Shown here: one piece after another, positions 3,730 through 63,999 of the stretch
How positions within the stretch are numbered: the first letter of the stretch is position 1
Layout of the letters: the number at the start of each line of letters is the position of its first letter
Virus record (IMG/VR): IMGVR_UViG_3300024259_000012
DNA: 64,000 nucleotides
Reading direction: 5' to 3' (one strand)
Origin: a virus
The notes under the pieces: generated by a model
What the model was told of the DNA's origin: nothing
The model's database searches: none
The model's input: only the letters and a program-made list of their open reading frames with translations
Position numbers and translations under genes: made by a program

Positions 3730-3963
3730 TTATTTCTCCTTTAGTAATTCATCTACATCAATCAAATATCCATCTGGGAATTGAATACTTACAATATTTC
3801 ATCCACCAGATTCGTTTGATTCATATGTGTTGACCACACCATATCTGGTGGTGAATGAATATGATATTATTTCATCACCAATCTCTTGAGTGTGTACCAA
3901 CTTACAACCCACCGGAATTGGCAATCCATCATCCGGAAATAGTTTTTCAAAGGGACTGGTCAT
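3730..3963 (-). CDS. 77-aa hypothetical protein with one TGA=Trp
   Basis: MTSPFEKLF...SGG(TGA 3799-3801)NIVSIQF...KEK-TAA; fills the gap exactly only with readthrough. Confidence 0.65.
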
Positions 3964-4749
3964 TTAGAATTCCACCACGTCACCCATGCGGGCAATGCCT
4001 TTGAACCCATGAGCTTGAACATCTTCGTCGGTCATGTCAACACGCAAAGCATCTTGATAATGTGACAGATAGATTTTTGATTTGGTATTCTCATGGAGTG
4101 TACGCAAATCTTCATAGTGTGCATGAACCCCTGATTTCAGCGGCTTACCATCCATGTACAAGTACTCGGTGTCATGGAAAATTACATCTGCCATGTTGTA
4201 AAAGTCTTGAATCTGATATGGTGCATGTTGGGTGTCAAGCGTCAAGAAAATAGTCTTGTCGTTCTCGGTAATCAATAATCCATATGATGGAACGAACTGA
4301 AAGCCGTTCATAATATGAATTGTCTGCACAGGTTGCAGTTTAATACCGTTCCAATTAACCGCCTTGTTTACGTTCATTGCCTTGACATTGAAAAAGTCGT
4401 CAAGTTTACAAATCTTCCCTTGAAGTGAACCCATGCCTGCAGATAGTGCATTGTTCCAAAGGGGTGCTACCAAATCTTCTGCCAAATACATCGTTGGTCT
4501 TGGGAGTGTTGGGTTGAAGTATGTTGCAAATCCAAGCCATTCAAGGCCGCCGATATGGTCACCATGTAAATGTGAAATATACACGGCATCAATATCTCCG
4601 AGTCCGAGACCCGCTTCTTTGTATGCCCACTTTGCATCTGAGCCAAAATCAATCGCCAGACGTTTCCCATTCTTCGCTTCAAGCGTGTACATGGTATTGA
4701 AATAATTTTGTGAGAAAGCCGAGCCTTCTCCTAATACTGTAAGTTTCAT
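3964..4749 (-). CDS. MBL-fold hydrolase, Apyc1-like (anti-Pycsar cNMP phosphodiesterase)
   Basis: GxGSAFS, HLHGDHIGGLE, LVAPLWNN, LDDFF, IFHD, GVHA, LSHY follow the recalled Apyc1 motif order. Confidence 0.8.
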   Translation of the reverse strand: MKLTVLGEGSAFSQNYFNTMYTLEAKNGKRLAIDFGSDAKWAYKEAGLGLGDIDAVYISHLHGDHIGGLEWLGFATYFNPTLPRPTMYLAEDLVAPLWNNALSAGMGSLQGKICKLDDFFNVKAMNVNKAVNWNGIKLQPVQTIHIMNGFQFVPSYGLLITENDKTIFLTLDTQHAPYQIQDFYNMADVIFHDTEYLYMDGKPLKSGVHAHYEDLRTLHENTKSKIYLSHYQDALRVDMTDEDVQAHGFKGIARMGDVVEF

Positions 4750-4752
4750 AAT

Positions 4753-5040
4753 TTATCCCTCGTGGTTTTCGCCTTCCATAATCTTTTCAAATATTGGAAA
4801 GGCTTCAACTAATTTGTCTGCACACTTCTCACAGAATATTCCTTCAATCGGCCAGTGAGATGTCATATTGTCATGATACATTCCCCAGCCACCATGGAAT
4901 GTCATGTGCAATGCCCCATCATATTGAAATCCACTCTTGATGGAGCTTTCTGCGTAATGTAACTCCGCATTGCAGTTATCGCAAGTACAATTTATAATTT
5001 CTTCGGTTCGTGTGACCTCGCTCAAACTATGCTTTATCAT
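4753..5040 (-). CDS. Zn-binding hypothetical protein
   Basis: CDNC...CEKC. Confidence 0.65.
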   Translation of the reverse strand: MIKHSLSEVTRTEEIINCTCDNCNAELHYAESSIKSGFQYDGALHMTFHGGWGMYHDNMTSHWPIEGIFCEKCADKLVEAFPIFEKIMEGENHEG

Positions 5041-5194
5041 TGGTGAACCTATCTGGATATAACTCTCAGATTTTACTCCGGATTGGAAATTTTATTGCGT
5101 ATTCAAGTTGGTGTACATATTTGTACACGTCAGACGTGACCTCAACCTTTATCATTTTACCGGTGGAATCTAATACATTTAGCGTTTGGTTCAT
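5027..5194 (-). CDS. 55-aa hypothetical protein with one TGA=Trp
   Basis: MNQTLNVLDSTGK...RSKI(TGA 5066-5068)ELYPDRF. Confidence 0.5.
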
Positions 5195-5563
5195 TTACTT
5201 GCTCCCTGTTAATTCGTCAAAATATTGTTTGGTGTTTCTCTGGATTGCCCGTTCTCTAAATATCTCTGAGCGGGCATCCAATTCTGCTTTGGTATATGTG
5301 TCAACCATGCTACCACATTTGAAACACACCTTCATAACTTTCATTTTTGATATGTTTCCGTCGTATTCATATCGTCCCGCCGGTGGTTTCGGCGGTGGTG
5401 GTGGATTTTTCATTGATGGAATATATGACCCCGTGATTGCCCCACTTGGGCTTATCCGATTGTTCCAAGGTGCTTTTTTATTTGAGAAAAACGACGTTCA
5501 TTCTATGTACCCCTCGGATTGCCGTAGAATATGTATTCGTATCCATCTACCTAATTTAGTCAT
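5195..5563 (-). CDS. Pro-rich hypothetical protein with one TGA=Trp
   Basis: TAATG-coupled ATG at 5563; TGA 5498-5500 in frame with the track ORF 5195-5413. Confidence 0.6.
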
Positions 5564-6210: not shown

Positions 6211-7169
6211 TTTAGCCCTCCCCCTCGCATGAGGTCACTTTGTTGCTTTGTAGTCTCGGCGTTCGGTTCTTGAACCTCTCCCTCTCGGCTTATGGTATCA
6301 ATATCTTTTACATAATGCTCTTTCATTTCACGCTTTGAGTCCAATGTCCAAATGTAAAATTCTTCAGTTTGTCTAACATAGCCAACAACTGCTTTTCTTG
6401 GCAGTTCGGGCTTGCGTTGATATTGTGCGTATGTTTCTTTAGTTGGTGCAACCAGATTGAATCCACACACCCTATTGTATTCTTTTGCGAGCAACTTACC
6501 CATCGCTTCCACTTCTTCGGATACTTGCCAGACAACTTGAATTGGCATAGCCATTGAACCACTTACATTTGCCCACATTCTATATAATGCATTTGTTTCT
6601 GCACCGCATAATAAACAGTGAACATTATTTGTGAGGTATGCTAATTCTACCAAGTTTGGATTTCCTGTGGCGTAGCCGTCAAGCGTTTCCATAACAGATG
6701 GAACGTCCCATGGACGCAGTTTGGTTTGGAATTTAGGGTCTTCCATGGCGAGCGTCAAGATATCCTTGCGCCTAACAAAAGGTGATGGAAATTGTGCTCT
6801 ATCAACTACGGTTCCCCACAGTTCATTGTCTACCAATTTCACAAGATAATCTTTGTCCACGCTTGGCTTGAAGTGTGGATACACATTTTCATTCTGCTGG
6901 AAGTTCCGCATGAGTTGAAAATAGCGTGTAAGCTCGTTTGACTTGTAGTAATATCCTTCAATTGGATATGTCTCAAGTCTCGGACTTCCCGCTCTAACCC
7001 AAATACGTTCTGCCTTTGGAAGCAGTTCATTTGCTTCAAAGGTCATCATTTCACCACGAATCAGATTGTCCATCATGTAAAAATAATCATCGTTATTGAT
7101 GACTATGGTTTCACCATAAAATGTGGTGTTACTGTCAAAGTCAACTATATTATTTAGCACCGTGTCCAT
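6192..7169 (-). CDS. hypothetical protein (weak DUF3160-like segment)
   Basis: Long ORF; GYYYKSNELTRYFQLM resembles a recalled DUF3160 motif, with no other support. Confidence 0.6.
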   Translation of the reverse strand: MDTVLNNIVDFDSNTTFYGETIVINNDDYFYMMDNLIRGEMMTFEANELLPKAERIWVRAGSPRLETYPIEGYYYKSNELTRYFQLMRNFQQNENVYPHFKPSVDKDYLVKLVDNELWGTVVDRAQFPSPFVRRKDILTLAMEDPKFQTKLRPWDVPSVMETLDGYATGNPNLVELAYLTNNVHCLLCGAETNALYRMWANVSGSMAMPIQVVWQVSEEVEAMGKLLAKEYNRVCGFNLVAPTKETYAQYQRKPELPRKAVVGYVRQTEEFYIWTLDSKREMKEHYVKDIDTISREGEVQEPNAETTKQQSDLMRGGGLKLNTHS

Positions 7170-8043
7170 TTTCAATCTCCTCAATTTTCTCTTTTATAAA
7201 ATCTTTGACATTTCTATGCGGCTTCCAACCGTATCCATTGAACTCACCATCTGAAAGCGTGTCTGCCATCTCACCCTTGGGGCGGCTAACAAATTTAAAA
7301 GTTGCATCTGGGAACAGACTTGCAAGCTCATTCAATGAATGATTTTCACCTCTACCCAATTCAACCGGCGAATACATGCTACATAATTCATCATTATCAA
7401 CTGCTGTGAATAGCCAATCAACAATATCATCAACATGAGTATAATCCCTACGTTGGGCGCCGTCCCCCGTGATTGTCAATGGCAACCCTTGCTCGTATCT
7501 ATCCAACCAAATTCCAAGCACCGTTCCAAATTCAGTGTCGCCAACCATGTGGTCACCATATACATTGTAAAATCTAACTGACACAGCGTTGACATCATAT
7601 AGCGTATAATACATTCTACACAACTGCTCTCCAATTGCCTTGGATGTGGTGTATGGATTTGCATACATGTTGCCCGTCGTTGACGATGAGCTTGAAAATA
7701 TGACCGTTGCGCCGGTTGATTTAGCATATTCCAATATATTGATAGTTGAATCTATATTATTTTTCAAAAACAGTTTCGGATTCTTCAATGAAGGTTGAAT
7801 TCTTGGAAGTGCCGCCAAGTGAAATATCACATCAGGCTTCTCCATGAAATATGTATAATCCTGCACCGTTGTAAGGTCTGCATTGTAGTATTTAACATTC
7901 TTGTGGTCAATTTCATTTGACCTCGTGCCTGTACTGAGATTATCTATCCCAACTACGGTTCATCCAAATTCAACCAATTGCTTGATTAGATTGTATCCAA
8001 TGAATCCATTTGACCCCGTGACTATACATTTTTTATTTTTCAT
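7150..8043 (-). CDS. NAD-dependent nucleotide-sugar epimerase/dehydratase, TGA=Trp at codon 28
   Basis: The GSNGFIG Rossmann motif joins the catalytic YTTSK, RFYNVYG and RDYTHVDD only by reading through TGA 7960-7962. Confidence 0.9.
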
Positions 8044-8809
8044 TCAATATTACTCCCATGTTCTCTAAATCTTCCTTAAACAAAATCCGCAGTTTCAAGT
8101 CGGGATTTGATTTTCTAATAGCCTTAAATTTGTCCTCTTGCAAACTCCAATGGTATGCATTCTTTACATCCACATATGTATCCTCATCAATTAAATAGAA
8201 ATCTGGATAATATGAATGCTCTTCACCATCAATCACATATGGGATTCTACCACGATGACATTTGAATTTTACATCATTCTCATCCAAATGCTGTATGTAT
8301 GCACGTTCCCAAGTTCCTTGAGCTTTTACTGTGGTGCCGTCTTTCAATATGCAATCGTATCATTTGCAGCGTCCAACTTGAACTCCATCCATCTTGCCGT
8401 CCGCTCATGCCTTTTTAGTCATATCAATATGTCTTTGCATGAACTCGGGGTCTTTGAATAATTCTTTGCGGGTGGCACTTGCTTTAGCTCTCGCTTCTGG
8501 TGATTTCATGCCGTTCTTGTCACCAATATTCACAACACCCTTTGACGTTTCACTTATCTTTTTACTATGCTCTAACCACATTTCATGGGCTTTCTCAGCC
8601 CCGTGCTCTTCGGCTCATATACTTTCAACATTTTTACCAAACATACCACTTTGTTCTCCCGAGCGACCATACATTTTTGCTCGCTGTTCTTTAGTCATTT
8701 TAGCATTGTTAGCACGTTTGGTTTTGCCCAATTTACGGTTTCGCTCTGCCCACATTTCGTTTGCTTTTTCTTCGCCGTATTTCTCAATCCATATTTTCAA
8801 CACATTCAT
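8033..8809 (-). CDS. free-standing homing endonuclease (repeat DNA-binding N-terminus plus TnsA-like PD-(D/E)xK domain), 3 TGA=Trp
   Basis: YYPDFYL...VDVKN; TGA at 8615, 8405 and 8360 join two track ORFs; own GGAGA SD and promoter. Confidence 0.75.
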
Positions 8810-11553: not shown

Positions 11554-12120
11554 TTATACCTTCTTTAAATCCCAAATTTTGTTGAGAATATTATAGATTA
11601 GTTCCACCTGTTCATCTGTAAATTGCCACCTAACATTGACATTCATATCAGCCCAATCCTGTGGGCGTGAACTCAATTCCTCTGACATTGCCATCCAATC
11701 AGCACACATTTCTGCAATGTATACATCAGGCATAGCTGTTGCGTTTACCATTGTGTCGGGGATAGCATCTCGGTTATCTCGGTTGAACATGGACGGGTTG
11801 TAATCGGGGTCTCACTTCTCGGGGTGGTGACCGTTGTGTAAAATGTGATGCTCTGTAGCACCATTCATTTTGTCCTTCATAATCTGTGGCATATCAAATG
11901 GAACACCGTCTCGCTTACACTTATAGTCTCAGGTTATGAAAATATATGGAATGCGCTCGGGGTCTTCAAATTTAGATTGGTCATGCTTCTTAACAATTTT
12001 CCGTAGCTCTTGGAACTCGGGAAAGAAATCAGTTATTAAATATGCATACTTCTGCACCCGTTTGATGTGTGTATTTGTGCGCTCTTTGTACCACGCATTC
12101 ATGTCATTTGCTAATGTCAT
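11554..12120 (-). CDS. DUF5662-like HD-related protein, 2 TGA=Trp
   Basis: H...HDQSK...HH..N.HHPE(K)W...EMCADW is reconstituted only via TGA 11929 and 11812. Confidence 0.8.
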
Positions 12121-15324: not shown

Positions 15325-16254
15325 TTATAACCCTTCTATTGATTTGTCCCACTGCTTCAGAAATGCTTCCTCTGAATAGTGTAGTTCATACAAGTTGCGT
15401 GCCATCTTTGAGCAATCATTGTAGAAATGCTCATCGGTTTTCAATCTACGTGCTATTTCTTTGGCTTTGGCGATATCACCCACCTTAACACTTGTATATG
15501 GGTGCAGTCGCTGTGTATTCACATTGTCGTACCCAATGCATGGAATTCCCTGATACGCACAATTCAAGTTGAAGGTGCCTGCCGATGGCGTTCCCATTTG
15601 AATGCCATACTTGAACCCACCCAACAATTCTATCCATTCCGACCACCGCATCCATGGATGGTGCGTAATGTCCAACATGTCTTCCTCCGGCTTCATCCTG
15701 CCAGTTGTCAAAGCGTGCACCTCTGTGTCCAATTCTAAGGCCACCTGATATGAATCAAACCCACCATAAGCCTGTACCATGTTGCCGCCCATCATGACCC
15801 CTTTACGGACGCCTACGTGCGGTTTTACATAGTCTGTAATCATTAATGAGTGTAGCAGTTCAGTGCGTACACCGGTCAATCCTTCATAGTAAAGTCTATC
15901 AGAATCGTTGTGGGCGAATAAAACGTCCATCTCGGTCAATAGGTTGAAATACCAAATTTGTTCTGCTATCTCATTGTCTTGCCAATATGTACAGGTTCCC
16001 TCTTGCATGGCTCCAACCTTCTTACAAGCTCGCTTCATGTGTTCAAGGATTGGCCATTCCAAAAGGTAATCCTTTTGCTTTGGAATGATTATAATTCCGA
16101 TATCAAACGAATCGTCCGGAATCCCATCTATCACATTGAGTGGAATGTGGACAGCTTTAAGACTTGCAATTCATGCCAATTCCGTTCGCATGTTAACTTG
16201 TTCTCGTGGAATCATCCCCGTGTAACCAGCTTCTGAAAAGAATGCTATTTTCAT
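15325..16254 (-). CDS. GT-B fold glycosyltransferase-like protein, TGA=Trp at codon 28
   Basis: TAATG-coupled MKIAFFSE...MRTELA(TGA 16171)IASL; C-terminal GTFNLNCAYQGIPCIG. Confidence 0.75.
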
Positions 16255-20186: not shown

Positions 20187-21097
20187 TAGTTATTTACTCC
20201 CAATTCTGTTAATATTGGAACCAACTCTTTGTATGAGCAATTCTTGCAATGGTCGGTTGGTTCGTTGGTCATGCAACCATGCTTGATTTTCATGAATGCA
20301 TCGGTCTCTCGGATTTCATCAATGCTATCCACAAATATGTTTCCAACTGGGGTCGCCCCTGTATTCATGCAACATATTTTCACATCACCACTAACAGTCA
20401 TGTACATTCCATTGTGTACCCAAAAGCAATCTTCAAAATCCCAAACAGATTTTCCCTTGATTGCAGGTAAGTATGTTTTCAAAAATGCAATTTGCTCGGG
20501 TATATAGCCCAGCGAGTCCTCAGCAGAAATCGTTGAATCTTCATCCCACGACTGAACAATATTTAACCGCAACTCACCTAAATCGTATTTTTCAATCAGA
20601 CGTTCAACGTGTGGAATCTCAAACACATTGTCTGGATTCACGGTGTAGTTTACAACAACCTCACATCCCTGTCGGTCAATGTCTTTGAAATCCTCTAAGA
20701 ATTTAATCAGCGTTGTCCATTTTGCAGGTGACCGGTCACGCTCATAGCTCTCTTCAAATCCATCTATTGAAAAATATAATTCATCAATGTATTCCAGCGA
20801 GCGTTTAAATTTGTCGCCCAATTTGTATTGACAATTTGTAGCAACTATGACCTTACACTTTGGGAAGGTTTGTTTGAATCTCTTACAAACCTCATCAAAT
20901 TGAGGGTGCAATAATGGTTCACCCATTCCCATTAATTTGGCTTCTGCAATTGGGTGGTGCTTCAGCTTTTCCAGCACGATGTCCCATTTAACCAATGACA
21001 TGTGGGAAAGCTTGCCAATAACCTCATGCCGATTACAGAATGAGCAATTGAGATTGCAATAATTTGTGGTTTCTAAATATGCGTATGTTATGCTCAT
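20186..21097 (-). CDS. radical SAM/SPASM-twitch protein
   Basis: CNLNCSFC, GEPLLHP, VKICC, CKNC. Confidence 0.9.
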   Translation of the reverse strand: MSITYAYLETTNYCNLNCSFCNRHEVIGKLSHMSLVKWDIVLEKLKHHPIAEAKLMGMGEPLLHPQFDEVCKRFKQTFPKCKVIVATNCQYKLGDKFKRSLEYIDELYFSIDGFEESYERDRSPAKWTTLIKFLEDFKDIDRQGCEVVVNYTVNPDNVFEIPHVERLIEKYDLGELRLNIVQSWDEDSTISAEDSLGYIPEQIAFLKTYLPAIKGKSVWDFEDCFWVHNGMYMTVSGDVKICCMNTGATPVGNIFVDSIDEIRETDAFMKIKHGCMTNEPTDHCKNCSYKELVPILTELGVNN

Positions 21098-21810: not shown

Positions 21811-22327
21811 TGAAAATTACTCCATGTAATTTTAGCAGGGAAACGTTGTGGTCTACACACACATCTTCAACCCTACCGTTTAAATATAAATACAAATCTA
21901 CGTCGTTCAACACGTTGGTATACAAGTCTTCCGAATCCAACATGATATGTTTTATTAACCCCGTGGCCAATAGGCTGTCCAAATTTAATACACCCTTCAA
22001 GGTCTCAATCTTGGGCACGAACCCAACACCATCAGGCAGTGCATCACATATCACTTTTACTTCGGTCACGTCCTCAACATTGGATACTGCGAAATATTCA
22101 ATGTTGTCATGCTTGGCCATTTCAGTCAAAGTTTCGTTCAATGGAATTGTGGGAACGGGTGGTTTGGTTCTACCCTTTGGATAGTCCAAAAATACAGGGT
22201 GCCCGCACTTCAAAAATTTACGCAACTCCGCCATATCCTTGACATGCGCCATGTTGATACGAACCACCACATCTTCCAACTTTTGAAATTGTGGTAGTCC
22301 TAACAAGTGATTAGATATTAGTATCAT
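21800..22327 (-). CDS. pyruvate-kinase/HpcH-like TIM-barrel protein
   Basis: VRINMAH, FLD.P..R.K, VPKIET, IMLD.EDL. Confidence 0.65.
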   Translation of the reverse strand: MILISNHLLGLPQFQKLEDVVVRINMAHVKDMAELRKFLKCGHPVFLDYPKGRTKPPVPTIPLNETLTEMAKHDNIEYFAVSNVEDVTEVKVICDALPDGVGFVPKIETLKGVLNLDSLLATGLIKHIMLDSEDLYTNVLNDVDLYLYLNGRVEDVCVDHNVSLLKLHGVIFNDS

Positions 22328-22664
22328 TTAATGCCTCCCGTATTTTCGTAGCCGAAATAGCTTCAATTTCTGCAGGCGGCTCATGTTCTATAATACCATA
22401 CCCAACATCTCTACCATAATTAACCGATTCAATCGCCGGAATTACTGTCAACGATACAAGGTCAGCTTCAATTTCAGCTTCATATCGTTTTTGCAAATTC
22501 CCATACACCTCTCATGATGTGTAAATGTTTTTCTCACCATCGGGTTCCAAGTCCATAATAGCAATTGCTACAAACTTACCCTCGTTCAACATCTTTGTAA
22601 CCATTCACGCATGTCCATCATGGAACGGTTGAAATCTACCAATATACAATGACCACTTTTTCAT
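22311..22664 (-). CDS. HxGH cytidyltransferase-like nucleotidyltransferase, 2 TGA=Trp
   Basis: IGRFQPFHDGHA(TGA 22605)...(TGA 22512)...YGRDVGY...ISATKIR. Confidence 0.85.
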
Positions 22665-25454: not shown

Positions 25455-26257
25455 AGTAAATTTATCTCCTTTAATAACATATCAATTATAACCTTGTCTG
25501 TTGCATACGGCACGATTCTCATCAAATTCAAAATCTGAAATGGAACGTAGTATTTTTTGTAATACTCCTCATCAGAAAACGTGGCCGTGAATTGCCTGTC
25601 TATGTATGTAAAAACCTGTTGCAGTCGTACTCTATGCTCCATGTTCCCCAATAGATACAATGACCAAAAATAATGCGTGTCCTGCCTGACCTTAACAATG
25701 TCTTGCAATGGGCTGTCCAAGAAGGTATCCAAAAAATCTATTAATGCAACCTCATTATTATAAAACAGCATATTTGAGAATGTCAAGTCTCCATGGCAAT
25801 ATCCCATTGGAATATCAATGGTGTCATCAAGCTCATAAAATAGTCAATCCAAATGGCTCATGACAATTCCATGCGCTTTGAAAATATCAGTCTTCACCGA
25901 CTCAAACTTGTCAACCACAACCTTGCGACTAACCGACCCAACCGATTCAATGTTGGAACTAACAAATGCACAAAGTCTTCCAATGAAAGCATCCAACTGG
26001 TCTTTTGTTGCTACTATGAAAAATTGGTCAAATGACTGATATGGTAATAATTCCATTTCAAATGAAAATATACCATCATCGGTAATATCAAAATCATAAA
26101 CTTCAGGACAGCCGAAATACTCACTCTGAAACCGCTCCTGTTTTATTCATTGGTTTTTCAACCGATTTGAATATTTGGGCGAACCCGACCGTTTTACCAA
26201 ATGGTCATTTACTATCTCAAATGTACAGCCGGAATGACTGAGTGCATCAAATTTCAA
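25442..26257 (-). CDS. APH/choline-kinase-like phosphotransferase, 2 TGA=Trp
   Basis: TTG start; TGA 26147 and 25844 join HSGC..LVKR, FEME, CHGDLTFSN and LIDF into one kinase. Confidence 0.85.
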
Positions 26258-48714: not shown

Positions 48715-50367
48715 TTAAACGACCTTAAATTCATTTTTCCATTTATTTTTCGGACTGAAAAACAATCGAGCAATGTTGCTGTCCAATGCGTATGACATTG
48801 AGAAGTCTTTGTTATTTCGTGTTGACCTCCCCAATCCCTGTATGATTTTGTATATGGTCATTAGCTCATATATGTCAGGATAATTATCAAATATGTATCG
48901 TATCCTCTTATCACCCAATGACGGGTATGGTGCCTTCGTAAGAATTTGAAACCGTGATTCATCGTCAGGCAAATCAATACCCTCAAATAACGACGGTGAT
49001 ATCAAAACCGACGGCTTGCCGTTTGTCTTGTGGTCATGCACAGAATCAGCCAATAAGCTTCCACGCTCATGCTCAACCAAGTTTCCCGCCCTGCGTTTTC
49101 TAATTACATTCGCCACCTGCTCGGTAAGCTTAAATGATGATGTCAATATTATACCATTCACATCAGCATGTTCTTTGATAATGTCCGCTACAACGTTTCC
49201 GACCTGATTCACAAAGGCGGGGTTGTTCAAATTTTTATAATTGTAACTACCGTGCTTCAAAAATGCTACACTCTTACTCTCCTGCTTGAACACCGGCGAT
49301 GACTTAATAAATTTTATGTCACTGCGTGGGATTCTCAATGTCTGTGAAATAAATGAAGCATCAATCGTAGCAGACATAAATAATGAATAATCTGTTGTGC
49401 GAAGACGCTTGAACATGCTACCAACAAAAATTGGAGTTATGATGAGTCCATTATCTTGAATGTCGATTGCATATTCATTTTTCTGTGTTTGCACTTCAAA
49501 AATATTACCGGATATGCTCTTAAACATCTTGATAATTTTAGCATAAGATGTATACGCTTTCATATTATTTGCACCAAAATATCGCTTGGCCTGTTCCTCA
49601 TATTCTGCGATGATTTCCTCACATAGCTGTTTCATGGCTTCAATGTATGTGCCATAATTTGACAGGGTGACCCTGCCGGTGTGCAACGCCGATGAAAATT
49701 TATCAATGCGTGGAGCGAAGCCGTCAAATCCCTCAGTCTGGAAGGTATTCATCCGAGACTTCCAAAATTTCAAATTGGACATGGTGAGCTTAAGTGCCAT
49801 ATGATTGCTAAACGTGTCGTTAATTAAATGCGCTTCGTCAAATACTGCTATTTGCCGTTGTTGAAATTGTTGGTTGTACATCGCTGATATGAAGTAGTAT
49901 GAATAATTTGTGATAAAATGGCTCGCCTTGTATTTGCGCTCCTTTAATTCTTTAAACTCACATGCATCACATTTCAGCCTATTGACACCTTTCAATTCTT
50001 TCATAATGCAGTGCTCAGCGGTGTCCTGCAATACAGCACACCCATAGTTGTTGGCACCCTTCACCGTAACAAAGGCATTTCCATACTTTGAAAATGATTC
50101 CCTATACTGCTTGGTCAGCGTATTTGTGCTCATTAAAATGTATGAGCTTGGTGCAGGAACGTCTGTTAATTTTGCTATACATTCCGCTACAATCACAGCA
50201 ACGATAGATTTACCGGTTCCCGTTGGGGCGGACAGCACCACATATTCCTTCTTTTCGTCAATATATGCCACTACAATATCATTGACTAAAGACAACTGAT
50301 TATCTCTTGGCTTCAAATCAAATTTTCTGAAGCAATCCAGTATCAATTTTTCATATTTAATCTTCAT
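48715..50367 (-). CDS. DinG/XPD-family SF2 helicase
   Basis: RDNQ, APTGTGKS, Cys cluster, DEAH, MSAT, EGIDL, QGLGRSTR. Confidence 0.9.
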   Translation of the reverse strand: MKIKYEKLILDCFRKFDLKPRDNQLSLVNDIVVAYIDEKKEYVVLSAPTGTGKSIVAVIVAECIAKLTDVPAPSSYILMSTNTLTKQYRESFSKYGNAFVTVKGANNYGCAVLQDTAEHCIMKELKGVNRLKCDACEFKELKERKYKASHFITNYSYYFISAMYNQQFQQRQIAVFDEAHLINDTFSNHMALKLTMSNLKFWKSRMNTFQTEGFDGFAPRIDKFSSALHTGRVTLSNYGTYIEAMKQLCEEIIAEYEEQAKRYFGANNMKAYTSYAKIIKMFKSISGNIFEVQTQKNEYAIDIQDNGLIITPIFVGSMFKRLRTTDYSLFMSATIDASFISQTLRIPRSDIKFIKSSPVFKQESKSVAFLKHGSYNYKNLNNPAFVNQVGNVVADIIKEHADVNGIILTSSFKLTEQVANVIRKRRAGNLVEHERGSLLADSVHDHKTNGKPSVLISPSLFEGIDLPDDESRFQILTKAPYPSLGDKRIRYIFDNYPDIYELMTIYKIIQGLGRSTRNNKDFSMSYALDSNIARLFFSPKNKWKNEFKVV

Positions 50368-50539
50368 CGTATAACCTTTTCATTCGCTCCTGCTTGCCCT
50401 TTTCGAGCTTTTTGCGTTGATACGTTTCTCTCGCCTTGCGAAGGATTTCACTTTTATTTCGTTCGTAATGTTCCGCTTGTCATTTGCGCTGAGCCTTTCG
50501 GCGTTCCGCATCTGACTTATATTTAAGCTTTCTACCCAT
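50357..50539 (-). CDS. 60-aa basic MGRKK-family protein, TGA=Trp at codon 20
   Basis: MGRKLKYKSDAERRKAQRK(TGA 50480)QAEHYERNKSEILRKARETY. Confidence 0.7.
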
Positions 50540-51584
50540 TATGCTCTTTCGCAAATTTGTCCAACCCAATAAAACACATGGTTAGTCACGTTTCCAAATT
50601 TGGCAATGCTTGATGGATTTGGTCTTCAAGTACCATCTTCTCAAATGCAAATTTATTCAGCGTTGGTATGTCACCCTTGACCAAGCCTCTCAGTGTAGAT
50701 TTGGCGTGCGAGCTTATGTCAACATCATGCAATTGCATCAATTTATAATTGAGACCAAGCACATCCTTGCTGTTCAATATGTTCTCATGTACAGCCAACG
50801 AGCCGGTCTCAGCCGCTTCAAATAAATCATTCACCGTAAATACTGCAGGTTCAACAATTTCAGGAAACCTCTTAACCAGCGTTTTCAGTCCGACGCCTTT
50901 GACGCCAGGAATATTATCAGATTTGTCACCCTCAAGAATTCTATACATCAAAAAATTGTGTGGTGGAATTTCATAATCCCGTTGCACAGCAAGTGGATTG
51001 TATAAAACCTTTTTGGTTGGAGACCACACGGAAATCCGGTCATTTACAAGTTGTAAGAAATCCTTGTCCGTGCTCATTATAACTATATTACTTTCGGTCA
51101 GCAACTGCTTGGAAATATAAGCCATTGAATCATCGGCTTCTATATTTTCAATCGTCACAATTGTCATTGGAAGATGTTTGAGATATTCCAATGCTCGCTG
51201 AATCTGCATGTACATGGACTGTTTTTCATCCTCAACAGAACTGAATTCATCCGACCTATTTACTTTTGATGCAATCTTGCGATTTGCTTTATATTCGGGA
51301 AATAGTTTCTTGCGCCGCTTTGACCCGCCCTTACCATCAAATGTGATAATGACACGAGTTGGTTGTATGGTTTTTATTGCATACCCAACCGAGCGTAAAA
51401 ATCCCGTGATGCCACCCACATGAACCCCATTTACATTGGTAGTTGGGGTCACCGCAAAAGCACGGATAAATGTGTTTAGACCATCTATTATTAAAACCTT
51501 GCTGTCAGTTTCAAGGCTGTCAGCGTTTTCATGCTCATCTTTTAACTGAGTCATGATATTATTAAAAATCTTTCTATCAATCAT
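50532..51584 (-). CDS. 5'-3' exonuclease/flap endonuclease (T4 RNase H-like), TGA=Trp near the C-terminus
   Basis: IDGLN, FDG, YKANR, EADD, STDKD, GDKSDNIPGV; LPNLET(TGA 50586)L. Confidence 0.92.
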
Positions 51585-51733: not shown

Positions 51734-52825
51734 TTATTCATCAACGATTTCAATATCCTCTTCATCATGGACTTCGGCATCGCTTTTGTATTCCATTATT
51801 AAAGCACCACATATCAAATCATATATGTACTCTTCAAGACCTTCATTCTCTGCAAGAGCTTCTTTAAATTTCGCAGGGGTGAATTTAATCACCTTATCGT
51901 TGAACTCAACAACATACGAATTTTTCTCTTTCTTACACAATTTGTAGTCTTTTAGCACCACAAGCCAACTCGCATAATCATCTATACCAGAATCAAAATA
52001 CATGTGGAACTCCGCTTTTCTTAACGGTGGACCCAATCTGTTTTTTGTGATTTCACACTTGGTTTTCATACCAACGATTTCTTCACTTTTCTTAATTCTT
52101 CCAAGATTTGAAAGACGGATGCGAACCGATGCGTGGAATGGCAATGCTTTACCACCCGATGTTGTATATTTATCACCGAACATTGCACCTAATTTGTCAC
52201 GCAATTGATTAGTAAAAACTATTGCAATTTTTTCTTTGCTGATTAAATTGGTAATTTTTCTCATAGCCTTAGACATGATAATTGCTTTTGCCGTAGCCCA
52301 GCCTTCCTTATCAAAATCTTGCTCCATTTCTACCTTTGTGGATGCGCCCGCCACGCTATCAACTAAAATAGCAACAAGCCTGTCGCTATCACCTTCACGA
52401 ACCTTGGCAATAATGTCTTCAATTGTTTCAAAAACATCTTCCATAGTTTCCGCTGGGACATACACCATCTCTTGTGTATTAACACCAATTGCATTTAAAA
52501 ATTGTCGGCTAACCGCAGATTCAGTATCAATGTATACTGCGATTCCACCTTTTTTCTGACACTCTGCCAGAATGTGTGCGCCAACCAAACTTTTACCGGA
52601 CGCTTCAAGGCCATTAATTTCACATATTCTACCAACTGGTATTCCACCATGTGGCATATTTGCAATGCGTAAATCTAATATACTTGAGCCGGTTGAAATT
52701 CAATCGGAAATATCAGCGGGATTTTCATCATCAAGAAAATGTGCAACCTTTAGTCCGCCACCTGAATTCAAGGAATCTGCAATTGAATTAACAAGCACAT
52801 CTTCCCTATCTATTGTATCTGTCAT
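51734..52825 (-). CDS. recA: RecA/UvsX recombinase, TGA=Trp at codon 42
   Basis: D(TGA 52700)ISTGSSILD, GLEASGKS, IDTE, VDSVA, TNQLR, SGGKAL.F. Confidence 0.95.
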
Positions 52826-52885: not shown

Positions 52886-53665
52886 TTATGCTGTTGCCTT
52901 GGCCTTGTTGAACAGGTCATCGAAATCAGCGGCGGTTGCAGACTGGGATGTAACCTCAGCCTGTTGTGGTGATGGAGTGTCGGTTACTTCAGTATCTTCT
53001 TCTTCATCCGTTGGATTCAGATATTGGACTAAAGCATCCTTCAAGTCATCATATGTTAATTCCTGATAGACTTCCCTAATATCCTTTTGGTTATTAAGTA
53101 GTGCATCCAACTGAGCTTTGTTCTCAGTCAATGGTGTCTGATTAGGTTTAACACGGATTGTTGTTTTTGGAAAGTTTGCGCCGGTTTCTTCCTTTGGAAT
53201 GAATTTCACCGTGATGTCACGACCGTTTAACGGGTCTGAAATATCACCATAATCTTCATCAAGAAAGAATTCCATTAGCTCAGTATTAACTAACTTTCCA
53301 AAGCCCCAAAACTTAACACCTTGAGCTTCTTCACCACGAACAACTACAGGTAGAAATGTACGTGTTTTGGCCTCAAGTTTACGAGCCATTTGATAAGAAT
53401 CCTTATCTCCGTTTGCTCTTAGTTTAATTGCGAATTCTTCGATTGGGTCAGGACGACCGAATGAAAGGGGTGACAAGTATGTTTTTCCACCAATGTCATA
53501 GTGGAATTGCATTTCAATAAATGGATTATCCGGTACGTGCTTATATGGTACTACACGAATGACCGTTTCACCATTAGTTGGTTTTCACAGGCTTGTGGTT
53601 TTGTTTGACTCGCTGTTTAATTGTGTTAGTTTTTTACGAAGTGCATCAAGATTGATTGCTCCCAT
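52886..53665 (-). CDS. single-stranded DNA-binding protein (T4 gp32-like), TGA=Trp at codon 27
   Basis: L(TGA 53585)KP...IRVVPY...PFIE..FHY, VVVRGEE, FWGFGK, GRDI, acidic tail; GAGGAG SD. Confidence 0.88.
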
Positions 53666-57029: not shown

Positions 57030-57252
57030 TTATAATTCCCGCCTCCAAATCCTTAATATATTCAACCGCCAAGTCAATGGCTTTCATGGCACACCCCTGT
57101 CTTGACTGTGTGCCGTCTTTATGTGTCCGCAACTCACCGTTGCCATCCATTGGGTCGTATTCAAATTCTGCGAGTGGAATCTTTGAATCTTCACTCTCAA
57201 CTATAATAGTGTCGTTAGCTTCAAAATCCCACCAATATTTACTTGACATCAT
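57016..57252 (-). CDS. hypothetical protein
   Basis: ORF with GGAG SD. Confidence 0.6.
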   Translation of the reverse strand: MMSSKYWWDFEANDTIIVESEDSKIPLAEFEYDPMDGNGELRTHKDGTQSRQGCAMKAIDLAVEYIKDLEAGIINADT

Positions 57253-57782
57253 GCTATCTCCTTGTATTCAAACAATTCGTCCAGCATTTTCCACGCTTTG
57301 GCAAACTGATTTCCACGCTTCAGTGCAAACCTGAATACCGGATATTCTCTACGATACTGCGAATATAGTCGGTGACCCTCAGCTTTTGAATTACTTCCAT
57401 TTGCATAGCGGTCACACATTTTCAAAAAGGTTCCCAATCGGCTATCACGGGTCTTTGGCAGGGTCTTGAACATGCGTTCAATTCTGTTCTTCCCAGATTC
57501 ATCTGTGACTGAGAAAATAACATCGGCTTCGTCTGTACCAAACTTAGATTCAACCTTGTTGTATGACATACCAGTGTCTTCAATCAAATCGTGACCAAAT
57601 ACAGCCCGAATTAAAATCTCATAATCGTGCTTCGAAAGACTGTCATCCATGAATAAATCAATAATTTCACGAACCATATCCAAATGAACACTGTATGATT
57701 TTCCAGTACCATATGTCTGTTTAACTTGGTCGTGCTTACTCTTAGCAAACGCTCTCAATTCTTTGATGTCATTTATTATCAT
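57249..57782 (-). CDS. HD-domain hydrolase, SpoT/Mesh1-like small alarmone hydrolase
   Basis: H..V.Q..G...Y..HL, GHDLIEDT, VTD, K.CDR..N; ends at TGA (57201 if read through). Confidence 0.8.
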   Translation of the reverse strand: MIINDIKELRAFAKSKHDQVKQTYGTGKSYSVHLDMVREIIDLFMDDSLSKHDYEILIRAVFGHDLIEDTGMSYNKVESKFGTDEADVIFSVTDESGKNRIERMFKTLPKTRDSRLGTFLKMCDRYANGSNSKAEGHRLYSQYRREYPVFRFALKRGNQFAKAWKMLDELFEYKEIA

Positions 57783-58644: not shown

Positions 58645-58648
58645 AATG

Positions 58649-58868: not shown

Positions 58869-59110
58869 TATCTGCTCCCGTCCTTAAATGCTTCTTTTGT
58901 CTTGTCTGAAAATTTCTTGATGTCTTCCATTTCCATGTCAAATTTACGCCAAACGTATTGTTCTATGGCCCCGTACAAATCTGCCAATTCACATAATTGA
59001 AGTACCAAATCGTCCTGCTCCCAAGCATCTTCAAGCTCAACAAACTCTTCCTTGATTTTTGAAAAGTGTCCGTACTTGCCTCTTGGTATGTCTTTCTTGT
59101 GGTAGCCCAT
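58868..59110 (-). CDS. MazG-like NTP pyrophosphatase
   Basis: KIKEEFVELEDA...ELADL. Confidence 0.75.
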   Translation of the reverse strand: MGYHKKDIPRGKYGHFSKIKEEFVELEDAWEQDDLVLQLCELADLYGAIEQYVWRKFDMEMEDIKKFSDKTKEAFKDGSR

Positions 59111-59704: not shown

Positions 59705-59738
59705 GGATTATTTTATTAGGTTGTGTTGTGTGATGTTA

Positions 59739-60152
59739 TTAAATGTTGTTCTCCCATTCAATCGTATTGATGATAGTGTGAATCTTGGTGTGAATGTGCT
59801 TGAATCCATCTTTGGTGGTGAGCAACAAACTGTTCTGAAATTCACTTCAATCAATCGGAAATGACTTGTCCAAGACGCCATTGTTTTTTCTCCGTATAAC
59901 TTCGTTTAGGCTATTGATGGTGTATAGCGTGTTGGTCTGCTTTTTCCTGTGCAACGATATTGTGTCGCTATTGGTTATGAAATCATCACCTGCAAATTCA
60001 ACATTGTATGTGCATACCAACTGAGTAGGTTCGGCCACATTATAGAATACATATATTTTATTAAATACAATATTATGATATCCAACTATTACATCAATCG
60101 TATCATTCAATTGTTCTACTTTAGAAAACGTCGCCAACAAACTTGTACGCAT
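59739..60152 (-). CDS. conserved large-phage hypothetical protein, one TGA=Trp
   Basis: TISLHRKKQTNTLYTINSLN...FPID(TGA 59847)SEFQNSLLLT. Confidence 0.8.
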
Positions 60153-60631
60153 TAGTCAGTTACCTCTATATCATCTACTGATACCCATTCAGAACCAGGC
60201 TTCTCTTCTTTAAGAATGCCGGTTGAAGTTTCTGAATCATCCGAGCCTGTGATTTGATAATCAGGAAACGGGCTATCGGCAACAACAAAAGTGGAACCTG
60301 TGATTTGGATTTCCGTTCCATCAATTAGTGCATCAGATTCTACAAGACCCGCTTCACCCAATTCTATGGATTCTTCAAGCGTAGTTCCAATTCCAACAAA
60401 AAGGTTTTCACCAAGAATTGGTATTGGTGGTGTGGCAGGAATCGGTTCCACACGGTCACCCTTCAAATTTGTAATAAATTCATTTATCGCTTGAACCGGC
60501 CATTCAAATTCAACCAATACTTCTCGCAATAACATTTGATGTCCGAAATTTTTTGGGTCGGGCTTTCCATCAGATACTTTAAACGCTCACTCTGTTAATA
60601 TGTTCTCCAACATTCCTTCATAATCAGTCAT
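60152..60631 (-). CDS. acidic hypothetical protein, TGA=Trp at codon 15
   Basis: AAGGAG SD; ILTE(TGA 60587)AFKVSDGKPDPKN in frame with the track ORF. Confidence 0.75.
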
Positions 60632-60652
60632 AACTTTCTCCTTTGTATATAA

Positions 60653-61954
60653 CTATTGAGTAAAATAATTATCAATGTTTTTCATGTCACCGTAATTTTT
60701 ACCCATCTTAGCACTCACCCGCTTGTTTCCGAACTCCAATATTCTCTTGATTTCAAACAATGTTTCAGACCCATCATCGGGGTGAAAATCAAATAACATT
60801 GAATCATACAGATACAATATAAATTTGGTTTGCCTTGGTCTCAAGAAGGAATTCAGTTCAGCAAAGGTGTCTTGCATTTCTTCAAATTCTATCAATTGAA
60901 GCAGGTAATTAAATAATTTCTGTGAATTCATTTTGTCAAGGTTTCGTGACAGTATCCGCTTTTTAGTAATCGGAGATTCAATATAACCTTGAGCCTTGTA
61001 CGTGCTCCATAGCTTTCGTATATACATATTAACTTTTTTAAAAAAGTCTATTTTTTCAAACTCTTCATCAATTCCACCGTATAACAACCTAAATGAAATC
61101 ACCTTTGAATCGGTGTACTGCTCGGGCGTTAATTCGTCTACATCAAAATACAGCTTCCCAAGATATTTATGTGGGTTGACACCTTCGGGGAATGCGTGTC
61201 CAACCAACTCAGAAATAATCATCAAGTGATTTGCGGTGTAATCAAAATCCACAAGATATCCACTCTCATGTCTTGAAATATATTTGTTGCGGGTTTCGTC
61301 CTTTTTGTTCATTGCTGAGAAGTTGACCCCACCATATCTATTTGATGCACGACCGGTTGCCGTGAACATATTGTAGTTTGTATATGTCAGTCCTGTTGCG
61401 GTCTGCAATCCTTGCGTTTCAAGCTCCCACAAATTTTCAACTATCGTATCGTTATAAATCTCCATATAATATTTATCATCAATAAACCGCTCAAGCTCGG
61501 TCACCAATTTGCGGCAATATTCCAAGTGCTTTGTTAGTGGAATAATGCTGTTCACATTGGCAACATTATAATATTTGACGTGGAAAAATTGATGTGCGGT
61601 TGTGGAGATGTGGTCTATTTCAAGTGCTTTGTTTGTTCTCATATAATGCATCAGATTGACATCAACCAACCCATTAAGTGCAAGGGTGTGTAGCATGAAT
61701 TTTTTGTCAAATACATACTTGCGATTATCAACATTTAATTGTGTCATGTAACTCGGTGGAAGGTTCAATGATTCGCTGTGCTTGAATGGTAAAATGTAGT
61801 CCGACTCGCACCCTATCAGTTTTACATACAATGCACAGATTGAGTTTTCAAGCGGGTGCAATTTGGTGTCGGACAAAATGGGTATAAGAATCCAGTCATG
61901 CTTTGCGGCACGTTCTATGAATTTATCAAATTGTGTGAGGGTTTCAACAATCAT
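60653..61954 (-). CDS. compact family A DNA polymerase-like protein
   Basis: TATGRAS, motif A DFDY..NH, motif B SK..SF.LLYG, NYLLQ, motif C LYDS. Confidence 0.8.
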   Translation of the reverse strand: MIVETLTQFDKFIERAAKHDWILIPILSDTKLHPLENSICALYVKLIGCESDYILPFKHSESLNLPPSYMTQLNVDNRKYVFDKKFMLHTLALNGLVDVNLMHYMRTNKALEIDHISTTAHQFFHVKYYNVANVNSIIPLTKHLEYCRKLVTELERFIDDKYYMEIYNDTIVENLWELETQGLQTATGLTYTNYNMFTATGRASNRYGGVNFSAMNKKDETRNKYISRHESGYLVDFDYTANHLMIISELVGHAFPEGVNPHKYLGKLYFDVDELTPEQYTDSKVISFRLLYGGIDEEFEKIDFFKKVNMYIRKLWSTYKAQGYIESPITKKRILSRNLDKMNSQKLFNYLLQLIEFEEMQDTFAELNSFLRPRQTKFILYLYDSMLFDFHPDDGSETLFEIKRILEFGNKRVSAKMGKNYGDMKNIDNYFTQ

Positions 61955-61989
61955 CCCAATATAACCTTTTTAGTAAATATACTACATTT

Positions 61990-62574
61990 TTATAGCAGAT
62001 GCAACCTTTTTAATGTTTCTTCTTTTGGTGTTAATTCGTGTTGCCAATATTTCAAAATATCCAAATTGAACCTCTCCGAATCAAAATACTCCTGCACCTC
62101 TTGAAGTGCAATATAGTTGTTCTTGGAAACTACACTTTTTTCACCAACAATCAACCATTTTATTTTCAATTTTGAATAAAATGTCAATGGGGTGGAATAT
62201 GCGCTATCCTTGATTTCAATTATCGGGGCGAGTTTATTATTGGCCTGTCTAACAAAATACCTATACATGAATCCACCCTTCCTATTTTTCTTAGTAACCT
62301 TTGGCTCATATGGTGTGGCAAATTTAGTTGGTGTTAACGTATTGGACGATGATGCTTTATATCGTGTGAATGCGCTTCGGGACTTCATATTGTATATCCT
62401 GCGTGGAATAATACTATCGGTTATGTAAAACTCTTCCATATCAGATGTGTAATATATGGTGTATGCAGTGTCCGGCTTGACCCACGAAACCGTAGTATAT
62501 CTGAATTCATTCTCACCGGCGATTCCCGCTATTTTGCGAGTAGCACTGTCCATTATTTCTTGTAAGGTTTTCAT
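61990..62574 (-). CDS. hypothetical protein, probably structural or baseplate-associated
   Basis: P.VT......G...RYFV...N...IIEI; position downstream of the hub-like gene. Confidence 0.55.
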   Translation of the reverse strand: MKTLQEIMDSATRKIAGIAGENEFRYTTVSWVKPDTAYTIYYTSDMEEFYITDSIIPRRIYNMKSRSAFTRYKASSSNTLTPTKFATPYEPKVTKKNRKGGFMYRYFVRQANNKLAPIIEIKDSAYSTPLTFYSKLKIKWLIVGEKSVVSKNNYIALQEVQEYFDSERFNLDILKYWQHELTPKEETLKRLHLL

Positions 62575-63999
62575 TTAACCCTCCTGTGGCAATATTGCAT
62601 CGCCCCATGGATTTCCCTGCTCTTCAGGTGCGGGTGGCCCCGTCTCACCGTCTGCCGGTTCAACATTCTGTGCAGGTTGCGCAAGTGGTGGACCCGCTGG
62701 ACGTTGTGGCGGTGGGGTGTTTGGGTTCAGCTTGGACATATCAACTCTGATTTGACCACTAATTGTAGTTTTCCAACCGGAGCTATCAATTTCATGGGTA
62801 GCCGACGTTATTTGAAATAGTGTTTTTTCCTTGTATGATTTTGGGACATAATCGCTTCCAAAACAATTTCCAGGATATACTCCGCTTATACCATCCAATG
62901 TCAATTCCAAACTAAGTGGAATCAGTGGTGCCGAATCATACATGACCGAATCTTTGGGGTCACCATTGATTAAATACTTCATTGTATCCAAGTATTTATA
63001 GTCCGCCGTATTGAGCATTGTTCCATCCTCGTTATATGTTACATTTTTTAATTTTTTTGCAGATTTCCAAGCATACAGATTTTCTGCGGTCAATGTGATT
63101 TTCTTGCTTTCTTCCGTAACTTCAGTCACTGCTTCTTTAGTACCAGATGTTACTGCCTCCTCCGGTGGGTTCAACTTAGCCAAAAGTTCCGAATCGTGTG
63201 GTGGTAAGAAAAATCCATTATCGGTTTTTAGCGGCACATTTGCCGAACCAACCTTACTTCCAAATCGTATAAATTTATATGCGGGCTTCAGGTCTGCCAA
63301 TATTTTATCCTTTGAACGCTTGCTCATTCCTCCCAAAGCAATTCCTTGTATTCCACCTGCTTTACCCAAGTCCGGAGTACCACTATTGCCGGAGTACATC
63401 GACGCCACCGCCATGGAGCTTGGGAGCTTGCCTGATAATTGCTGGGACAATACAATACTACCCTTTCCCCACGTAGGAAACATGAATAGTGCGCCGGTTG
63501 CATCTTCTCAGTTTGAGGATATTGCGCTTTCATTTTCAAGTAAGGTTGTAATTGAAATTGGGGTCAAGGCCATATCAATCACCTTAAGCCGTGACTCATC
63601 ATCCGGCGCAGAAATCACCGACAAGTCCCATAATCCAACTTCCGTATTCATTTTCGTAAATAGAGATTTCAAAACCGATGACATATCATTGGCACCCTTG
63701 AAAATGTTGTCCATTAAATATTGCCAATTGAATAAAATGTTCCTAACATATCCATGTGTGCGAGCACTATTATGTGACGGCACTTCAGCACTTGCATCAA
63801 AAAATGCAGTTTTCGGTAAATTTAATATTGGGTGTTCCAACACATCCCGAGTACTTTTAAGATGCTGACCTGGCAATATGAAAAATTTATAATTTGGTGC
63901 CATCAATTGGGCGTGATTTGAAATGGTGGATGACCGATATGCAGTTTGTGATTCATCAATTTTATGTTTCTTCAACTCATCTTTTTCCCACGGTGGCAT
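62575..63999 (-). CDS. 3' part of a large baseplate-hub-like structural gene, one TGA=Trp
   Basis: Track ORFs 63508-63999 and 62575-63483 are in frame across TGA 63508; LELTLDGISG..PG...FQIT...HEID..GWKTTI.G. Confidence 0.6.

Follow-up and report, generated by a model that had tools for sequence, protein, structure and literature searches.

Recoded phages and the phage described here

Among described phages in which TGA stands for tryptophan (Trp) while TAA and TAG are kept as stops, the gut phages of the Agate, Jade and Sapphire clades (Borges et al., 10.1101/2021.08.26.457843) come closest to the phage described here, which is represented by a stretch of 64,000 nucleotides (the window) of IMG/VR virus record IMGVR_UViG_3300024259_000012 and which, as judged from comparison with homologues, very probably reads UGA as Trp at 27 positions within its genes. 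As here, the gut phage genomes are compatible with the standard code in one part and have in-frame TGA in another, standard-code phages are among their close relatives, and many members have no detectable suppressor tRNA. The present phage differs in that it is T4-like and originates from seawater and Antarctic-lake metagenomes, not from animal guts, and in that recoding is sparse (27 sense TGAs, about 8% of the Trp codons, in about 19 genes) and includes the genes for the single-stranded DNA-binding protein (SSB), RecA and RNase H. It also differs in that no gene for a tRNA, for release factor RF1 or for tryptophanyl-tRNA synthetase (TrpRS) is found in 96% of its genome.

In crAss-like phages with two-code blocks (Mgcod, 10.1101/2022.06.29.495998), a recoded stop codon is a terminator in one set of genes and a sense codon in another, as is also the case here. 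Those phages belong to another phage order and mostly convert TAG to Gln. In the present phage, the two uses are not separated into two large blocks but interleaved at the scale of operons, and the reassigned codon occurs in the ATGA start-stop overlaps of the standard-code part. Phages of Mycoplasma and Spiroplasma (PMC11210395) likewise read TGA as Trp and need no suppressor tRNA. They are small, however, and match their table-4 host throughout, whereas the phage analysed here shows an enrichment of TGA at gene ends, excludes the codon from some gene blocks and has relatives that use the standard code.

The nearest cultured relative, as judged by the family-B DNA polymerase, is Microcystis phage Mel-JY01 (44% identity), followed by cyanomyophages (about 31%). 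Mel-JY01 and the T4-like cyanomyophages share a T4-type replisome and a contractile-tail module with our phage but are unlike it at the DNA level, and a blastn search against cultured phages gave no DNA-level match, only patches of 50–70 nt. We know of no recoding in Mel-JY01 or in T4-like cyanomyophages. A reading of the sequence that had been made without database searches (the sequence-only reading) had called recoding in such a phage an unusual setting. This holds for lineage and habitat, whereas recoding with a mixed code as such is already known from gut phages (10.1101/2021.08.26.457843; 10.1101/2022.06.29.495998). A full-text literature search of incomplete scope retrieved no report of a recoded T4-like phage. 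New are the T4-like lineage, the seawater-type and Ace Lake habitat, the sparse recoding that includes SSB, RecA and RNase H, and a clade free of tRNA genes; TGA-to-Trp recoding thereby reaches beyond gut phages into a T4-like lineage from waters of marine type.

The phage genome and its relatives

The genome of this T4-like myophage is about 146.5 kb long and the window represents its middle part, with a G+C content of 39.8% and 97 genes, nearly all of which are carried by the minus strand. Public contigs could be stitched to a composite of 140.5 kb, which extends from -58.4 kb to +82.06 kb in window coordinates and covers about 96% of the genome. More than 20 independent assemblies from ENA, JGI and Logan contain the same phage (99.98–100% identity), and it is a phage of many aquatic metagenomes of seawater type. 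An exact-pattern search of IMG/VR and JGI metagenome contigs with the window or its left end had no hits.

A T4-like replisome had been proposed from the sequence alone, and the searches bear this out. The window contains a T4-type replication module with a family-B DNA polymerase, clamp loader, DnaB-like helicase, a second helicase and ribonucleotide reductase, together with a gp32-like SSB, an RNase H-type 5'-3' exonuclease and a RecA-family recombinase. Tail genes (sheath, gp19, gp13, baseplate) adjoin the right edge of the window. Assignment to the T4-like phages is based on the gp43-type family-B polymerase, the gp44 clamp loader, the gp41-type helicase, the gp32-type SSB, the gp18 sheath, gp19, gp13 and the baseplate genes. 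The recombinase is RecA-like, not UvsX-like. A search of PDB with the SSB gave no match. Numerous genes for sugar and nucleotide enzymes are also found in the window, among them those for glycosyltransferases, an epimerase, a kinase and a cytidylyltransferase.

A sister phage (IMGVR_UViG_3300035698_011925, a 39-kb contig, about 70% protein identity) is more heavily recoded: open reading frames (ORFs) with 200 aa or more account for 37% of its length when table 11 is applied and for 69% with table 4. The metagenome from which it was obtained (3300035698) is from Ace Lake, Antarctica (PMC8542988, PMC9324843). An 11.5-kb JGI contig, in which the homologues of the kinase and cytidylyltransferase described below (80–94% identity) are likewise split, points to a third recoded relative. 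More distant relatives (45–57% identity) use the standard code. One of these, IMGVR_UViG_3300025168_000034 (G001; 165.6 kb, 98% complete), has TGA at about 20% of its stops, which indicates that TGA stops are ancestral in the clade; two others (G004 and G005) are represented by contigs. This phage with its sparse recoding, the heavily recoded sister and the relatives that use the standard code form a comparison set in which the beginnings of recoding can be studied.

The in-frame TGA codons are genuine

All 27 positions read TCA on the plus strand, and thus TGA on the minus strand, and all lie in frame within minus-strand ORFs that are bounded by TAA or TAG. In each case a start codon with a GGAG-type Shine-Dalgarno sequence (SD) is found upstream of the TGA, in agreement with the original description of these genes as SD-led when read through, while the first table-11 start beyond the TGA mostly has none. 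Pfam or PHROG domains cross the TGA in RecA, SSB, the epimerase, the DUF5662 protein, the APH-type kinase, the cytidylyltransferase and the glycosyltransferase. The motifs named in the sequence-only reading (an internal repeat NVLKIW.../NVESI*..., L*KP, *GT, HHPEK* and D*ISTGS) were all recovered from the translations. The RecA motif *ISTGS is indeed present, but Trp in this column is confined to the phage clade; the RecA of E. coli has Thr there.

Twelve of the 27 sites are covered by 3–7 independent assemblies from ENA, JGI and Logan, and every copy has TGA. As the alignment of independent assemblies shows just 7 mismatches in 112 kb and the TGAs are identical across them, sequencing errors can be ruled out.

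Only TGA interrupts genes, and both TAA and TAG remain terminators, as had been stated. In the window, the table-11 ORF set ends with TAA in 75 and with TAG in 12 cases, and treating TAG as a sense codon adds almost nothing. The proposed comparison of coding density was carried out with ORFs of at least 200 aa, and their coverage rises from 64.5% under table 11 to 79.0% with TGA as sense codon; as the values are 68.8% for TAG and 75.8% for TAA, this comparison alone is not decisive. Sigma70-type promoters, which had also been noted, could not be substantiated, as a consensus scan gave 48 matches versus 44 expected from shuffled sequences and thus did not exceed chance.

Public gene calls split the TGA-bearing genes, so that SSB is called with 208 aa and RecA with 307 aa. 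Since the public annotations of this abundant phage break SSB, RecA, genes of the sheath region and many enzymes, a re-annotation with a mixed code is needed.

TGA stands for tryptophan

The homologue column was read for each site, at the codon level in related viral contigs and additionally in protein databases. Trp is found exclusively or predominantly in the column at 17 of the 27 sites. All genes listed in the following are on the minus strand.

In the RecA-family recombinase (51734..52825; Pfam RecA over residues 32-282, E 4e-59), codon 42 is TGA (52700), and 22 of 24 relatives have TGG in this column; the sister phage has TGA, and one distant locus has GTG. The gp32-like SSB (52886..53665; SD AAGAGGAGAA; PHROG SSB families over residues 5-242) carries TGA at codon 27 (53585), where W is found in 19 of 21 homologues, Y in one, and TGA in the sister. 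The 5'-3' exonuclease of RNase H type (50532..51584) has Pfam 5_3_exonuc N and C domains and a TGA (50586) at codon 333 of 350; its column is W in 18 of 18 cases, and the tail beyond the TGA, LDKFAKEHNG, is conserved in the sister phage. A small adjacent gene of 60-70 aa (50357..50569) has a homologue with 72% identity in the sister, with TGG in the column of its TGA (50480).

An Endonuclease-I-like gene of homing-endonuclease type (8033..8809, 258 aa) has three TGAs, at 8615, 8405 and 8360. The columns of the latter two are W in 47 of 49 and 49 of 49 homologues, respectively, while TGA 8615 is part of an internal repeat and is replaced by TGG in the other copy, which is the only evidence for Trp at this site. 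The cytidylyltransferase-like protein (22311..22664, 117 aa) has W in 119 of 119 homologues at TGA 22605 and a variable column (Q/I/E) at TGA 22512. A conserved 309-aa protein without assigned function (15325..16254) carries TGA at codon 28 (16171), where 81 of 89 full-length representatives have W and G001 has TGG. In the glycosyltransferase (32625..33983, 452 aa; PHROG glycosyltransferase over residues 7-408), codon 44 is TGA (33852), while the homologue in G001 (E 3e-122) is free of stops and has TGG in this column. The DUF5662 protein (11554..12120, 188 aa; Pfam DUF5662 over residues 9-180) has W in four of four homologues at TGA 11929 and two W and two H at TGA 11812. In the NAD-dependent epimerase/dehydratase (7150..8043, 297 aa; Pfam Epimerase over residues 7-217), TGA 7960 at codon 28 corresponds to W and Y in two paralogues from G001.

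Towards the right end of the window, a 137-aa gene (59739..60152, function unassigned) has TGA at codon 102 (59847), for which relatives have TGG in 18 of 19 cases and the sister has TGA; five of five assemblies agree on TGA. The adjoining 159-aa gene (60152..60631, function also unassigned), which is preceded by an SD (AAAGGAGAAA) before its ATG at 60631, carries TGA at codon 15 (60587), with TGG in the column of the sister phage and TGA in five of five assemblies. At the window edge lies the 3' part (62575..63999) of a gene of the structural region with 820 codons, which starts at about 65037 outside the window. Under code 4 it is one open frame down to the TAA at 62575; its TGA at 63508 is confirmed by seven of seven independent assemblies and is TGG in the sister, and five more TGAs are found upstream of the window. 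For the TGAs at 63508, 60587, 50480 and 33852 the count is W in one of one homologue each.

Other columns are less informative. The APH-type kinase (25442..26257, 271 aa) contains TGA at 26147 and at 25844; its Pfam APH domain extends across codon 138, and full-length homologues of 270–273 aa cover 99–100% of the read-through protein. Both columns are variable (C/Y/H and others at 26147, S/E/K and others at 25844) and do not contain Gly. A poorly conserved, repeat-like gene of 223 aa (38949..39620) is one frame from an SD-led ATG through three TGAs (39324, 39261, 39012); its columns are mixed (W/I, R/T, E) in two distant, poorly aligned relatives, so that the residue is not established. A 214-aa gene (31933..32577) with an SD-led GTG at 32577 and TGAs at 32335 and 32296 has weak relatives and uninformative columns. 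At 39324 and 32296, W is present in one of the two distant, poorly aligned relatives.

Three small genes at the left end lack homologues. A 122-aa gene (5195..5563) has an SD-led ATG at 5563 and TGA at codon 22 (5498), which is TGA in four of four assemblies. A 77-aa gene (3730..3963) has TGA at codon 55 (3799), again TGA in four of four assemblies; reading through it closes a gap of 70 nt, so that the gene ends with a TAA adjoining the following start. In a 55-aa gene (5027..5194) the TGA (5066) is located 12 codons before a TAG, and this one could be a sense codon or a true terminator.

The direct comparison with the sister phage allows a test at the codon level, and no other single result is as strong. 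TGA codons of the window correspond to TGA in 9 cases, to TGG in 8 and to another codon in 1, so that 17 of 18 columns have a Trp codon in the sister; TGG codons of the window correspond to TGA in 15, to TGG in 72 and to other codons in 19 cases. By these alignments, TGA behaves as a synonym of TGG in both sister phages.

Two other explanations of the in-frame TGAs were considered. A translation as Gly (table 25) would open the same frames as table 4, and bacteria of the Gracilibacteria/Absconditabacteria type, which would be the hosts, occur in stratified marine waters. The alignment of homologues that had been suggested as a check nevertheless revealed Gly in no column, conserved columns are Trp, and TGA and TGG are exchanged between the sisters. 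Selenocysteine conflicts with the same Trp columns, as Cys occurs in only one variable kinase column (8 of 36), and 27 sites in 19 genes are far more than would be expected for this amino acid. We regard Gly and selenocysteine as extremely improbable. The TGAs might instead be real stops, with the genes being split, decayed to pseudogenes or misassembled, and public gene calls do split such genes. This is just as improbable, given that identical TGAs occur in 3–7 independent assemblies of an abundant phage found in more than 20 samples, that interruptions are by TGA only, that fragments beyond the TGA lack SD-led starts, and that domains and conserved tails continue across it. The table 25, selenocysteine and pseudogene readings are therefore rejected.

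TGA is probably also used as a terminator

The sequence-only reading had assigned code 4 to the phage. This is strongly supported with respect to the meaning of TGA as Trp but not as a uniform code across the genome, as about 30 genes appear to be terminated by TGA. Likewise, the statement that genes end with TAA or TAG is incomplete, as four window genes (at 57769, 57249, 21094 and 972, all on the minus strand) end at TGA under table 11. One is the gene for an R2K ATP-grasp protein (57769-58644), with its apparent terminator at 57769..57771; the next gene starts 11 nt upstream of it in another frame, and the tail of 8 codons behind the TGA has no coding signal. The 180-aa gene at 57249-57791 appears to end with a TGA (57249..57251) that overlaps the next start as ATGA, and its homologue in the sister phage ends with a TAA one codon earlier. 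An ATGA overlap is also found at the apparent end of gene 21094-21810 (21094..21096), with TAA following two codons later, while gene 972-1505 appears to end with the TGA at 972..974, with a TAG after 2 codons.

In the 140.5-kb composite, table-11 ORFs end with TAA in 185, with TAG in 39 and with TGA in 62 cases. Of these 62, at least 19 represent clear gene splits while about 30 look like true ends. Sixteen of these apparent ends overlap the following SD-led start exactly, as ATGA, and no coding signal is seen in their tails; a separate scan of a 104-kb composite found 17 ATGA cases, some of them spurious. In the latter composite, the last 20 codons of code-4 ORFs contain 25 of 75 in-frame TGAs versus 59 of 475 TGGs (p 2e-5). 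Terminal TGAs are clustered in blocks of small genes to the left of the window and in the operon at 57.2-58.6 kb, and internal TGAs are absent there. The core replisome genes at 40-50 kb have 40 TGG and no TGA. As in the phages with two codes, TGA still seems to terminate a distinct set of genes which has no TGA inside. TGA thus seems to have remained a terminator for about 30 mostly small genes of early type.

Placement of the sense TGA codons

Internal TGAs are overdispersed among genes (p 0.002) and skewed towards the N-terminus, with a median relative position of 0.35 vs 0.47 (p 0.012). TGA occupies the first Trp position of 16 among 24 genes, with 10.5 expected (p 0.013). Both the 5' skew and the first-Trp rule hold only moderately. 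In the composite, 26 of 50 sense TGAs (52%) have A as the next base, compared with 30% of TGGs (p 0.002); in the sister phage the corresponding values are 15 of 27 (56%) and 33% (p 0.04). A purine follows the sense TGA in 80–89% of cases in these two data sets.

Some genes outside the window are visible only when TGA is read through. A 201-codon gene at window coordinates of about -12116 to -11511, located among small TGA-ended genes, has TGA at four of its four Trp codons and no TGG, and is invisible under table 11. To the right of the window, on contigs L046 and L025, the 820-codon ORF at 62575-65037 emerges only if six TGAs are read through, and another ORF of the structural region (67748-70555, 935 codons) only if three are; public calls cut each of them into 3–4 genes. 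Codon 49 of the tail sheath gene is likewise TGA.

How UGA may be decoded

The search for tRNA-Trp(UCA), TrpRS and RF1 that had been proposed as a further check was run on 140.5 of about 146.5 kb and found none of them. ARAGORN detected no tRNA or tmRNA in the composite or in single loci, Rfam gave no tRNA match in the loci scanned, and the release-factor and synthetase Pfam families, including TrpRS, are missing from the public gene-call tables. A 186-aa gene (59110-59670), the first of its operon, that had been considered as a possible class II aminoacyl-tRNA synthetase has no Pfam match and was dismissed. G001, which is 98% complete, is likewise devoid of tRNA genes; for a T4-like phage of its size (165.6 kb) this is unusual. 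Suppressor tRNAs have been detected in only 15–35% of TGA-recoded phages, and non-canonical tRNAs are suspected (PMC11210395; 10.1101/2021.08.26.457843). As the machinery is absent in 65–85% of published cases, its absence here does not exclude the phage from this group. A clade free of tRNA genes is a good system to study UGA reassignment without a phage suppressor tRNA.

We favour, with a probability of roughly 0.6, a model in which early genes follow the standard code and later genes are recoded. Early genes would be translated under the standard code of the host, and later in infection UGA would come to be read as Trp; TGA-bearing genes, often with TGA at the first Trp codon, would yield full-length protein only after this switch. 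An early standard-code and late recoded phase has been proposed for gut phages (10.1101/2021.08.26.457843; Mgcod, 10.1101/2022.06.29.495998).

Several points weigh against this model or the assignments on which it builds. The designation "early" is based solely on the size, content and strand blocks of the genes; neither the sigma70 scan nor the T4 late-promoter motif TATAAATA could separate early from late genes, the latter having too few sites and no association with TGA-bearing genes. In the gut-phage model only structural and lysis genes are recoded, whereas SSB, RecA and RNase H carry TGA in this phage. As no suppressor tRNA was detected, it is not explained how a standard-code host would efficiently decode up to 6 TGAs within a single structural gene. 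Terminal TGAs could be relics that are read through into short tails, and these tails are only weakly shorter than the control (median 7 vs 16 codons, p 0.045). About 6 kb of the genome lie outside the composite, which stops some 5.6 kb before the presumed left end. Finally, six sites (26147, 25844, 22512, 39261, 39012, 32335) are in variable or poorly aligned columns and three (5498, 5066, 3799) have no homologues. The idea that the short tails after terminal TGAs provide a backup stop was rejected, its support being weak at the same p value of 0.045.

Of the alternatives to the switch, the one to be taken most seriously is a table-4 host without RF2, in which UGA already means Trp. The phage would then conform to the code of its host, and terminal TGAs would be relics from an ancestor with the standard code, with translation now continuing to the next TAA or TAG. 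This would account for the absence of tRNA, RF1 and TrpRS genes from the 140.5 kb and for a clade that, with G001 also tRNA-free, depends on host tRNAs; it would also account for TGA in essential, abundant proteins such as SSB, the sheath and the product of the 820-codon gene with its six TGAs. Behind many terminal TGAs a TAA or TAG is reached after 0–8 codons, and most cultured table-4 phages infect table-4 hosts (PMC11210395). However, TGA is over-represented at the ends of genes and in exact ATGA overlaps, and relatives with 45–57% identity follow the standard code, TGA making up about 20% of their stops. If TGA and TGG could replace each other freely, internal TGA would also not be expected to be absent from the small-gene blocks and the core replisome, where about 170 TGGs are found. 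To our knowledge, no free-living aquatic table-4 bacterium has been described, and a T4-like phage of 146 kb is unlikely to infect one of the known table-4 bacteria (Mollicutes, insect endosymbionts). We thus consider such a host improbable; if it is indeed a free-living aquatic bacterium that reads UGA as Trp, this would itself be new. It is unlikely, but would fit the preference for A after TGA in both sister phages and the tendency of TGA to occupy the first Trp codon, that the lineage alters the meaning of UGA in a standard-code cell without any tRNA gene, either by disabling RF2-dependent termination or by altering the host tRNA-Trp. In this reading, TGA at the first Trp codon would gate the translation of certain middle and late genes. 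A 3' A favours reading of UGA by normal tRNA-Trp.

Quite unlikely, in our view, is a phage-encoded suppressor tRNA-Trp(UCA) or dedicated RNA located in the 6 kb that were not recovered or missed by tRNA finders, even though suppressor tRNAs have a low detection rate in published surveys of recoded phages (PMC11210395; 10.1101/2021.08.26.457843). A candidate RNA of about 210 nt is located about 15.3 kb to the left of the window start (contig L056, 16790-17005, minus strand) and contains the motif CUGAAACCGA repeated twice. It has a TTGACA-17-TATTAA promoter, a strong intrinsic terminator and a canonical-looking T-arm (GUGAG-UUCGAGC-CUCAC) followed by an acceptor-like 3' strand. On the other hand, ARAGORN finds no tRNA in it, even with introns allowed and a low threshold, and Rfam gives no match to tRNA, tmRNA or tRNA-Sec at E values up to 10 (321 nt searched) and does not assign the RNA to any other family. 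It lacks a 7-nt UCA anticodon loop, the 7-nt loop of its 5-bp hairpin being GAGGAGA, and has no homologue in G001, the sister phage or the contigs G004 and G005. Being no tRNA according to ARAGORN or Rfam and having no UCA anticodon loop, it was rejected as a suppressor tRNA.

Neighbouring genes

A tandem array of about 25 small paralogous genes (50–90 aa) is located 6–11 kb to the left of the window (L051, 17500-20500, and L056, 7500-12800). Each protein starts with M-x-Y-K-Q-Y and has a C-x-C...C...LNG motif and a variable middle part; public gene calls leave a gap of 1.5 kb here. At the left end of the window, a metallo-beta-lactamase-fold protein (Pfam Anti-Pycsar_Apyc1; 3964-4749) and a Phage_30_3 (T4 gp30.3-like) protein (2040-2501) may represent a possible anti-defence cluster.

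Genes of RNA-repair type occur at two sites. Those of the window (56079-59670) include a PNKP-like gene (56079-57029) and the R2K ATP-grasp gene (57769-58644), while genes for T4 Rnl1-like and Rnl2-like proteins and an RlaP nucleotidyltransferase are found about 48-51 kb to the left of the window (L067, 17490-20354). A TET-associated glycosyltransferase (Pfam TAGT, E 8.5e-44) is encoded about 28 kb to the left of the window (L063, 1418-2293). Together with the many sugar enzymes at window positions 5-35 kb, its domain assignment suggests that the DNA of the phage may contain glycosylated, hypermodified bases.

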